A DNA stretch of 64,000 nt, from assembly GCA_965237955.1 (NCBI GenBank), contig OZ250169.1:4288001-4352000 (forward strand), written 5' to 3'. The first letter of the stretch is position 1; the number at the start of each line of letters is the position of its first letter. Under the pieces are notes generated by a model. That model was not told where the DNA came from and made no database searches. It was given only the letters and a program-made list of their open reading frames with translations. Positions 32,244 to 34,955 of the stretch are shown here, one piece after another. A program made the position numbers and the translations under genes. The DNA is from Candidatus Marinacidobacterales bacterium (GTDB lineage Bacteria; Acidobacteriota; Vicinamibacteria; Marinacidobacterales; SMYC01).

Positions 32244-32966
32244 TCATGCGAGCATTGCCTTGCGTCGCTCGACGACGTCCGCCGAGAACCACGAATCGAG
32301 GAACCCGCGCCGGGCTTCATCGCGCGTCGCCCGGATGCGCTCGAGCATGGGCGCCCGGAGCGCTAGCTTGGTGTGATGGAACGCGTGGCTAGGCTGGTCC
32401 CCGAGCTCTCGAGCGGCTGCCATTGCTTCGTCGAGCAGTGTCTCCCCGGAAACGACACGATGGAGGATACCGGCGGTTTGCGCCTCACGGGGCGACAGAA
32501 GCTTCGCACCGAGCAGAACCTCGGGAGTCGATGCTTTTGTCAATGCGTGGCGCATGATCTCGAACGCAGTCGCGGGGAAAACGATCCCGAGGCTGACATC
32601 GGAAACGCCGAGCTTGTGACTGCCCTCGGCACCGATTCTGAGATCCGCGGCGCACGCGAGCACGCACCCACCCGCGATCGCGTGGCCGTTCACCGCGGCG
32701 ACAACGGGCAGGGGAAACTGCAGGAGTGCGAGGTGCGCCTCTTCGAAGCTATCGACGAACGAGGCCATGCCGTCCCGGTCTTCCGGCAAGCTCTTGAGGT
32801 TCAACCCCGCGGAGAAGAACTTGTCGTACCCGGTGAGAACGACGGCCTTCTTGTCGGCATCGACCGCCGCACGCAGACCTCTGGTGAGCGTCTCGAGAAG
32901 TTTCTCGTCGATCGCGTTCGCGTTATCGCACTCGAGCCGAATTAAATGGACGTCGCTTGCGCTCAT
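32244..32966 (-). CDS. Enoyl-CoA hydratase/isomerase family protein
   Basis: FSAGLNL, PVVAAVNGHAIAGGCVLA.AADLRI motifs. Start set at ATG 32966. Confidence 0.88.
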   Translation of the reverse strand: MSASDVHLIRLECDNANAIDEKLLETLTRGLRAAVDADKKAVVLTGYDKFFSAGLNLKSLPEDRDGMASFVDSFEEAHLALLQFPLPVVAAVNGHAIAGGCVLACAADLRIGAEGSHKLGVSDVSLGIVFPATAFEIMRHALTKASTPEVLLGAKLLSPREAQTAGILHRVVSGETLLDEAMAAARELGDQPSHAFHHTKLALRAPMLERIRATRDEARRGFLDSWFSADVVERRKAMLA

Positions 32967-32973
32967 GGAGTTT

Positions 32974-33576
32974 TCATTCGAGACGGTTGAGGGCATCGAG
33001 CAACGGCTCGTAGTCCTCACGTACCTTGTAGTTGTAGTTGACGTAGCGGAGGATGCCTTTTTTGTCGATGACGAACGTCGCCCGGCTCGCGTACTTCGAT
33101 CCGTTGATCTCGAGCGGTTTGACGCCGTAAGCGTCGATGACCTCGGCGTTTCTGTCGGACAAGAGCACCAGTCCTTTCATCTCTCCCGGCTTCGCGACCA
33201 CGCGCATGCCTTCCGATTGCTCGCCCACGCTTTTCAGCCAGTTCCACTGCGAGTAAGGAGTGTCGACACTGATGCCGAAGACTTGCGTATCTTCATCCAG
33301 AAACTTCTGGATGTCGTCCTTGTAGGACGAGAATTGGAGCGTTCACCCGCCGGTCCAATCGGCGACGTAGAAGGCGAGAACGATGTTCTTCTTGCCCAAC
33401 ACGTCGCTGAGAGATAGCTTCACCTCTCCGGGGTTTTCACCAGCCGAGGAGGGTAAGGGGTTCGGGAACTCGGGTGCCTTGTCACCGACTTCGAGTGACC
33501 CCTCGGCCGCGACCGCGGTCGCGACCAACAACACCCAAGCCATCAGCCAAGCGGCGATCCGGTTGCGCTGTCGCAT
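32974..33576 (-). CDS. Exported peroxiredoxin-like (AhpC/TSA, redoxin) protein with in-frame UGA at the peroxidatic position (probable selenoprotein)
   Basis: Track ORFs 33343..33576 and 32974..33228 are in the same frame. Read-through gives ...VGDKAPEF...VLAFYVADWTGG-U-TLQFSSYKDDIQKFLDEDTQVFGISVD...LLSD..YGV..RATFVIDKKGILR (200 aa). Confidence 0.85.
33314..33330 (-). promoter_or_regulatory. Candidate SECIS-like hairpin
   Basis: UCGUCCU-ACA-AGGACGA begins 12 nt after the UGA. The apical loop lacks the usual G. Confidence 0.45.
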
Positions 33577-33608
33577 TTCTGATACCTCCGTTCGGAGGGG
33601 ACGATACG

Positions 33609-34955
33609 CTACCGGTCTTTGTTTCTCAAGCTCTTCTTTGTCCGGTCGATGTGTGCGAGCCTCTCCCGCATCCGCTTCTCGAAGCCCTCGTCGGTGGGCG
33701 TGTAGTAGCGCCTTGTGCGCAGACGCTCGGGAAGGCAGTCCATCCCGGCAACCTTCTCGTCGTTGTCATGCGCGTACTCGTAGTCCTTGCCGTAGCCCCA
33801 CGCTTTCATGTGATCGGTGACCGCGTTTCGCAAATGAAGCGGCACCGGCTCGGTGGCGTCCTCGAGCGCATCCTTCGCGGCGGCGGCGTACGCGCGATAG
33901 ACGGCGTTCGATTTCGGCGCCGCCGAGAGATACACGACGGCTTGAGCGAGGGCGAGCTTGCCTTCCGGAAGACCGATGAAATGGTAGGCCTCTTTCGCAG
34001 CGACGGTGTGCGCGAGCGCACCCGGCTCGGCGAGACCGACATCTTCCGAGGCAAAACGGACGAGCCGTCGCGCGATGTAGAGCGGATCTTCGCCGGCCTC
34101 GAGCATGCGAGCGAGCCAGTAGAGGCTCGCGTCGACGTCCGAGTTTCGGATCGACTTGTGAAGCGCGGAGATGATGTTGAAGTGCTCCTCGCCGCTCTTG
34201 TCGTATAGGAGAGCTTTTTTTTGGAGTGCGGTCTCGAGCTCGGCGATGCCGATGACACCACCGGGCGCGGACAAGGACGTGACCGCCTCGAGCACGTTGA
34301 GAACGAACCGCGCGTCGCCGTTCGCTTGCCGCGCCAGCCACTCGAGCGCCTCGTCGTCGACGCGCAGGCGTCCGCCGAGTCCGCGCTCGTCGTCCCCGAG
34401 CGTCCGCTGCATCAGGGTGACGAGCTCGACCGGTGTCAGTTGGCGAAGGATGACGACGCGGCAGCGCGATAGCAGCGCGGCGTTGACTTCGAACGACGGG
34501 TTCTCGGTGGTCGCGCCGATGAGGATCACGTTCCCGGACTCGACGTGAGGAAGGAACGCATCTTGTTGAGCTTTGTTGAAACGGTGGATTTCATCGACGA
34601 ACAAGAGCGTGCGGCGTCCGTAGACGTTTCGCTGATGCTCGGCCTCTTGCATGACCGTTTTGATCTCTTTGATGCCGGAAACGACGGCGCTGAAGGGGAC
34701 GAAGTGCGATCCACTACGATGCGCGATGATGCGAGCGAGGGTGGTCTTGCCGGAGCCCGGGGGACCCCACAGAATCAGCGAGCCGACGGCGTCTTTTTCG
34801 ATCGCGGCCGCGAGCGTTGTGTTCGGACCGGCGATCTCCTCCTGGCCGATGAGCTCGTCGAGATCGCGCGGCCGCACGCGCTCCGCGAGCGGGCACGTCT
34901 CGTCGATGGCCGCTTCCGGTCTCGGGGGTCTAGAGAAGAGATTTCTCTGGTCCAT
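33609..34955 (-). CDS. rarA: Replication-associated recombination protein A (MgsA)
   Basis: PLAERVRP, WGPPGSGKTT, DEIHRFNKAQQD, GATTENPSF, ISALHKSIR and ASEDVG motifs. Confidence 0.95.
   Translation of the reverse strand: MDQRNLFSRPPRPEAAIDETCPLAERVRPRDLDELIGQEEIAGPNTTLAAAIEKDAVGSLILWGPPGSGKTTLARIIAHRSGSHFVPFSAVVSGIKEIKTVMQEAEHQRNVYGRRTLLFVDEIHRFNKAQQDAFLPHVESGNVILIGATTENPSFEVNAALLSRCRVVILRQLTPVELVTLMQRTLGDDERGLGGRLRVDDEALEWLARQANGDARFVLNVLEAVTSLSAPGGVIGIAELETALQKKALLYDKSGEEHFNIISALHKSIRNSDVDASLYWLARMLEAGEDPLYIARRLVRFASEDVGLAEPGALAHTVAAKEAYHFIGLPEGKLALAQAVVYLSAAPKSNAVYRAYAAAAKDALEDATEPVPLHLRNAVTDHMKAWGYGKDYEYAHDNDEKVAGMDCLPERLRTRRYYTPTDEGFEKRMRERLAHIDRTKKSLRNKDR

Follow-up and report, generated by a model that had tools for sequence, protein, structure and literature searches.

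The 64,000-nucleotide window analyzed here, from contig OZ250169.1 of a Candidatus Marinacidobacterales bacterium, contains a gene that is almost certainly a selenocysteine (Sec) peroxiredoxin of the already known TxxU kind, and its in-frame UGA is followed by two abutting RNA hairpins, H1 and H2, both of which show a strong pattern of conservation. The protein is one more hidden Sec-peroxiredoxin, and it is the RNA signal that is the interesting part: this recoding signal looks like a novel variant, with position and recognition divided between two abutting hairpins. The UGA is very likely decoded as Sec by the genome's ordinary SelA/SelB/SelC/SelD system, and the sequence patterns described below suggest that SelB probably binds the AGUU loop of H2, with H1 positioning it. 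No description of a two-hairpin bacterial SECIS, or of this peroxiredoxin family, was found in the literature searched, a body of work outside which lie most primary SECIS papers and selenoproteome supplements.

A peroxiredoxin gene with an in-frame UGA

The gene lies on the minus strand (32974..33576) and was assigned, from profile and structure-database matches and from its orthologs, to the AhpC/TSA fold as a BCP/AhpE-like protein of 200 amino acids with one in-frame UGA. A Shine-Dalgarno sequence, GGAGGT, stands 7 nt 5' of the ATG (33584..33589, minus strand), similar sites preceding the ATG in several orthologs, and the terminal stop of the gene is also TGA (32976-32974). The in-frame TGA (33343..33345, minus strand; codon 78 of the frame running from 33576 to 32974) is found in the context FYVADWTGG-TGA-TLQF and is TGA in 45/45 distinct coding sequences; it predicts Sec78 in a V-x-x-x-T-x-x-U motif, with Val for the usual Pro. 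Public databases store the gene as an unnamed 77-amino-acid protein that ends at the UGA. Read through, the protein matches Pfam AhpC-TSA with 90.6 bits over residues 30-179, spanning the UGA. Its predicted structure (pLDDT 79.6) matched Bcp4 in Foldseek with an E value of 3e-12, the TM score being about 0.7 for the best fold matches, and its best solved sequence relatives are BCP-type peroxiredoxins (E about 2e-14). None of the 12 NCBIfam families matched, which included PrxU (NF040737) and other named peroxiredoxin equivalogs, scored over its curated cut-off; the PrxU score was 39.9 bits against a cut-off of 270.

The original prediction, made from the letters of the window, had placed the TGA at 33345-33343 at the peroxidatic position of a peroxiredoxin, with an intact frame behind it, no other Cys in the protein and a signal peptide, and all of these points held. 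The AhpC/TSA match runs across the UGA, TGT or TGC occupies the same column in five distant loci, the motifs GISVD, LLSD and RATFVID follow in frame, and the read-through translation contains no other Cys. Residues 1-23 (33508..33576, minus strand) form a predicted cleavable signal peptide, by a heuristic based on hydropathy: the N-terminus is basic, then hydrophobic, then AVA-A, the 11-residue Kyte-Doolittle mean is 2.1-2.35 at residues 7-25 and at most 1.5 elsewhere in the protein, and ortholog N-termini are similar. Export of the protein is predicted on these grounds. Thr75, U78 and Arg165 are invariant in the 45 distinct coding sequences, and Arg165, in ASRATF (33082..33084, minus strand), aligns with the conserved catalytic Arg of peroxiredoxins as represented by 3hjp and 3drn. 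The Pro of the PxxxTxxC motif is replaced by Val71 in 45/45, and Val is likewise present in distant Sec and Cys homologs.

Peroxidase activity is predicted from these features, in which Sec78, Thr75 and Arg165 would reduce peroxides in the cell envelope as a 1-Sec peroxiredoxin. The 1-Sec assignment is made because the closest Cys homologs found have CxxxxC and the second of these positions here is Ser83. Re-reduction of the Sec might be carried out by an envelope thiol, possibly supplied by the genome's DsbD-family protein. The cell-envelope peroxiredoxin PprX, which takes electrons from the DsbD-class transporter ScsB (PMC3322552), offers a precedent for an exported peroxiredoxin fed in this way, and the comparison is by analogy; a DsbD_TM gene is present in the genome studied here.

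Sec-peroxiredoxins with a TxxU motif (PF00578) have their prototype in Eubacterium acidaminophilum (PMC13188914), and a Sargasso Sea set held 43 TXXU genes (PMC1088965). As far as these sources describe the known proteins, the one reported here resembles them in its AhpC/TSA domain, peroxidatic TxxU, conserved Arg, UGA with a downstream hairpin and selABCD in the genome, but differs in having Val for the Pro of PxxxTxxU, no other Cys and a predicted signal peptide. BCP/PrxQ and AhpE proteins (PDB 3hjp Bcp4, 3drn Bcp1 and 1xxu AhpE) gave the best sequence and fold matches; however, identity to them is only 30-35%, and the protein differs from them in its Sec for Cys, its Ser at the BCP resolving position and its predicted export. 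Compared with solved BCPs it also carries about 15 inserted residues.

A genome search for the Sec genes, which the original prediction had proposed, found all of them: selA (E 1e-134), selB (366 bits against a cut-off of 242), selD (275 bits, over its curated cut-off) and tRNA-Sec, for which a single locus scored over the Rfam cut-off (72.6 bits versus 47). Under ARAGORN default settings this tRNA is the only one in the genome with a UCA anticodon; relaxed settings returned four extra low-score "SeC" calls among several hundred weak ones, and one locus only passes the Rfam cut-off. Among the 34 ortholog-bearing genomes selB was detected in 33, and it was not found in G023, a 91% complete genome that carries the Sec-peroxiredoxin gene.

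A reading of the UGA as Cys or Trp through some other route, a sequencing error or a pseudogene can hardly be right. In favor of such readings, the database entry ends at the UGA, and a distant homolog (P0004) was deposited with Trp at the UGA position, probably reflecting the gene caller's choice of genetic code. Against this, the Sec machinery is complete with one UCA tRNA, exactly one TGA is kept in 34/34 orthologs, and purifying selection downstream of the UGA is strong across the 45 distinct coding sequences. Contigs from four RNA-library runs, which report presence and not expression level, list no alternative letter in the covered parts of the UGA and of 33294-33330, with strain differences on both flanks, and TGA is otherwise used as a gene end in this genome, at many gene junctions. 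On these grounds we set aside a second UCA tRNA, as well as the Cys insertion, sequencing error and pseudogene that the original prediction had named. Eight of the 26 AhpC/TSA matches in this genome contain one TGA.

Several further observations concern the decoding machinery. The selD gene (G000:C1:4040942-4041856; L016:1384-3636, minus strand) is part of an open frame of 750 codons, in which it is fused to a long N-terminal domain that we take to be pyridine-nucleotide-oxidoreductase-like, and the SelD catalytic motif has Cys (CGGCAAK), not Sec. ARAGORN also called a tRNA-Cys with the unusual anticodon ACA at G000:C1:1295353-1295426, beside the normal GCA one; this call is possibly spurious. 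The frameshift-regulated RF2 noticed earlier in the window was found as well, with the CTT-TGA-C site of prfB at +42364; such programmed frameshift sites are a standard bacterial feature, and this one is unrelated to the Sec-peroxiredoxin.

Two abutting hairpins downstream of the UGA

Folding and an alignment of 45 sequences define H1 (33314..33330, minus strand) as a 7-bp stem that starts 12 nt after the UGA, with the loop ACA (33323-33321) at 19 nt. This agrees with the hairpin described in the original prediction, which had called it SECIS-like; the absence of a loop G from this first hairpin was correctly noted there, but a second, stronger hairpin abutting it had been overlooked. That hairpin, H2 (33294..33313, minus strand), is by its fold and conservation the likely SelB-binding element. 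It has 8 bp, a fold energy of -10.4 kcal/mol and the loop AGUU (33305-33302) 37 nt after the UGA, the loop G (33304) being the third base of Lys91. H2 adjoins H1 without a linker, and this zero-nt junction is found in 45/45 sequences. The 56-nt segment that holds both hairpins has z = -4.0, with 0/200 shuffles folding as well, most of its stability coming from H2, and the predicted pair probabilities of the element are 0.8-1.0.

Synonymous changes were counted on a tree of the 45 distinct coding sequences, which are kin and derive from 78 close-clade loci, many of them duplicates. H1 is paired in 314/315 cells, the exception being a C-A mismatch in L098, and its stem codons +5, +6 and +9 have zero synonymous changes. 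Its loop is ACA in 36 sequences, AUC in 3, and AUA, ACC and AUG in 2 each, with only the Tyr-imposed A constant; G occurs in the first two loop positions in 0/45, and H1 thus departs from the loop-G rule for bacterial SECIS elements (bSECIS). H2 is paired in 360/360 cells, its loop is AGUU in 45/45, and zero synonymous changes were counted at 7/7 of its codons (+10 to +16), compared with an average of 7.0 at 86 other conserved degenerate codons, four of which are at zero. Within the two-hairpin element, five such changes affect the Tyr of the H1 loop and one affects the Lys that follows it. Minority codons are fixed in the element: Phe92 is UUU and Asp94 is GAU in 45/45, versus 20/222 and 107/482 elsewhere in these genes. 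Amino-acid changes at stem positions preserve pairing via G-U. When the peptide was recoded synonymously with genome-weighted codons, both stems were retained in 0.2% of 20,000 trials and 0/3,000 folded as well.

Homologs were checked for hairpin covariation, as put forward with the original prediction: the UGA and the pairing are kept, and two-sided changes were not seen. In the covariation set 240/240 cells are paired in 16 sequences, wobble changes are one-sided only, compensatory changes were seen at no pair, and the covariation score equals that of shuffles. The case for the element rests on the frozen synonymous sites and the wobble-only changes. The encoded protein leaves no base of the AGUU loop unconstrained except the G, and another Lys codon, at position -15, is equally frozen as AAG. 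L105, a partial contig without the UGA that lies outside the counts, has an A-C mismatch in one outer H2 pair. Distant Sec homologs (about 40% identity) have a single bulged GGC-loop hairpin, and the same Lys is AAA in seven loci; Cys homologs have no stable hairpin. The order has a second selenoprotein family with an AGUU-type loop, placed at the canonical 22 nt, and the third-position G there is kept in 30/30 loci.

SelB, the loop-G rule and models of the signal

Rules for bSECIS elements specify a loop of 3-9 nt, a stem of 4-16 bp, a G among the first two loop nucleotides, an MFE <= -7.5 and a spacing of 16-37 nt (PMC13188914 section 5). H2 agrees with all of them (4-nt loop, 8 bp, AGUU with G then U, -10.4 kcal/mol, 37 nt), the spacing being at the very limit and dependent on how it is counted. 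The element as a whole differs from this consensus, as that source gives it, in that the position and the recognition loop belong to different, abutting hairpins and the one that occupies the usual slot lacks the G, an arrangement seen in none of the 54 controls described next.

Among the distinct other AhpC/TSA genes with a TGA that were sampled in the order, 54/54 carry a G at one of the first two places of a loop that lies 16-23 nt from the UGA, although these fall into about seven subfamilies and hence are not 54 independent cases. They come from 60 one-TGA AhpC/TSA matches (6 duplicates) chosen among the matches listed, 150 rows from 26 genomes with 234 more unlisted, and each was judged on the best of those hairpins whose loop lies 14-28 nt downstream of the UGA. 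Within this genome, 9/9 Pfam-picked and 12/13 motif-picked UGA candidates follow the G rule at 16-26 nt; only the nine are a clean control, because some of the 13 came from a list already filtered for G-loops. The remaining motif-picked site (G000 5188210) lacks such a hairpin with a loop G, and it may not belong to a selenoprotein at all. Among the other sampled genes of the lineage none had a G-loop beyond 26 nt. Since the rule holds in the lineage, a Sec-peroxiredoxin gene with a G-less H1 is an exception that needs explanation.

A divergent SelB paired with a divergent SECIS had been suggested as that explanation, and we rejected it. The C-terminal winged-helix motif of SelB, RKHAIPLLEWLD...T.R.G, is canonical: it aligns with the solved SelB structures 1lva, 1wsu and 5lzb and is kept in 30/30 SelBs examined. 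The same SelBs serve the G-loop elements of other selenoprotein genes of the lineage, including all 54 of the UGA-containing redoxins, whose collection the original prediction had recommended.

The model towards which we lean is a bipartite bacterial SECIS, in which a hairpin without a loop G, located where the mRNA enters the ribosome, does the positioning and abuts a GU-loop recognition hairpin read by SelB. Once the UGA occupies the A site, a folded H1 would sit at this entry, 12 nt further along the mRNA, which is the place at which the single SECIS hairpins of this lineage start. H2, having no linker to H1, could stack on it, which would bring the base of H2 to the same junction and so place its loop G about 12 + 8 = 20 nt-equivalents from the UGA, not 37. 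The folded H1 would in this way shorten the spacer to a value in the middle of the lineage range, SelB would read H2, and H1 would act as the positioning element. In the E. coli fdhF SECIS the SelB-binding upper stem-loop lies 11 nt from the UGA, and G23 and U24 of the loop are needed (PMC8659212). H1 starts at 12 nt much as the fdhF upper stem does, whereas the GU loop sits on H2 instead.

An unlikely alternative is that Sec is inserted with SelB reading H2 directly at 37 nt, H1 being kept for another reason, such as slowing the ribosome at the UGA or preventing mispairing with H2. H2 by itself agrees with the four consensus rules, and H1 tolerates one mismatch (L098) and has a free loop. The arms of the two hairpins are also cross-complementary in the sequence (CGUCC/GGAUG), so that H1 could serve as a folding guard. 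Yet no other sampled gene of the lineage has its G-loop more than 26 nt from the UGA, the start of H1 falls exactly where SECIS stems start and its length is the same, and the junction of zero nt is preserved in 45/45.

In the version closest to the original prediction, SelB would bind H1 despite the missing loop G, and H2 would assist by lengthening the helix or making the ribosome pause; this is distinctly unlikely. The position and size of H1 are canonical (stem start at 12, loop at 19), its stem is frozen, and some putative bacterial SECIS elements do fail the consensus (PMC13188914 section 5). A loop that takes five sequences, with nothing constant except the A imposed by Tyr, is hard to reconcile with direct reading, however, as is a canonical SelB motif in proteins that serve G-loop elements in 54/54 controls.

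A separate question, compatible with the bipartite model, is where H2 came from. It could be the former signal of a second UGA, now a Ser codon, in an ancestor with two Sec codons (UxxxxU at the CxxxxC positions of BCP), a history that we consider highly unlikely. The closest Cys homologs found (P0002 and P0003) do have CxxxxC, the stem and loop of H2 lie 14 and 22 nt after codon +5, which is canonical geometry, and Ser UCN is one step from UGA. Against such an origin, homologs with two UGAs turned up neither among 301 class genomes nor in genome and metagenome scans, the sole AhpC/TSA match with two TGAs proved to be a frameshifted AhpC, and a UGA at +5 would break two pairs of H1.

According to the source of the consensus rules, some bacterial SECIS elements fail them and there must be distinct classes of such elements (PMC13188914 section 5). 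The two-hairpin element is a concrete, strongly conserved candidate for a non-consensus SECIS that comes with a built-in control set. If the bipartite model is true, SelB would measure three-dimensional and not linear distance from the UGA, recognition could move five codons downstream, away from the residues that neighbor the active site, and a second hairpin may lie concealed behind those "failed" SECIS calls of other genes in which the loop G is lacking. A folded H1 that collapses the spacer would also bear on the positioning of SelB at the ribosome, on selenoprotein prediction and on the design of recombinant selenoproteins, in which the in-frame SECIS limits the choice of the codons that directly follow the UGA.

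Distribution and other selenoprotein genes

Of the 55 genomes of the order, 34 yielded an ortholog of the Sec-peroxiredoxin, and among 301 class genomes none came from outside the order; a phylum sample of 401 genomes contained no ortholog beyond this genome. The proteins form a separate clade on a long branch (support 100/99), confined to one order among the 301 class genomes searched. At E <= 1e-20 the protein database yielded 3 relatives only, with 33-41% identity, presumably a result of the truncated form in which the family is stored. Clade members with 45-60% identity, a Cys form or a double UGA were not found. The alternation of UGA and Cys, which the original prediction had proposed to look for, is seen at the five distant loci with TGT or TGC in the UGA column.

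The gene is flanked on the minus strand by window positions 33609-34955 upstream and 32244-32966 downstream, presumably a RarA-like ATPase and an enoyl-CoA-hydratase-like protein, respectively. The downstream neighbor recurs in many orthologous loci, and the upstream one in 7/34. No redox partner gene adjoining the Sec-peroxiredoxin stood out in the 34 loci, where neighbor clustering was swamped by shadow ORFs.

We also observed a wider, separate Sec-peroxiredoxin clade (L086, L087, L089, L090, L106, L107 and L108) with the pattern AFTGG-U-TKEL.AYQ.DIAK. It occurs in Acidobacteriota and other phyla and has a strongly conserved bulged GGC-loop SECIS; the homolog deposited with Trp at the UGA, P0004, is a member.

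The genome is rich in selenoproteins, with about 22 further UGA candidates. Among them are FDH, several Prx/Trx-fold proteins, and AhpD-, DsbA-, DsrE-, OsmC-, deiodinase-, rhodanese- and methyltransferase-like proteins, the family labels of the motif-picked ones being presumptive. When the whole genome was scanned by coding potential for read-through UGAs, the result was too noisy for the selenoproteome to be defined. One AhpC/TSA-like gene, a paralog with GRGYY-U-P (G000:C1:1530071-1530643; L232, G000 1530215), combines a weak hairpin with loop AGUU at 16 nt and a stronger one of 8 bp with loop AGCC at 43 nt, and is possibly another two-hairpin case; it had no ortholog in 54 other genomes of the order. 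Redoxin copies with equal scores lie far apart (G000:C1:2917207 and 7826398; 2988686, 8045527 and 2853555; 2081076 and 2979275), and a small UxxC selenoprotein is present four times in the genome, copies that reflect either recent duplication or assembly contamination (6.2%). L230 (G029:C22:329400-330100) is a Sec-AhpC gene with an upstream frameshift, which accounts for its extra stops.
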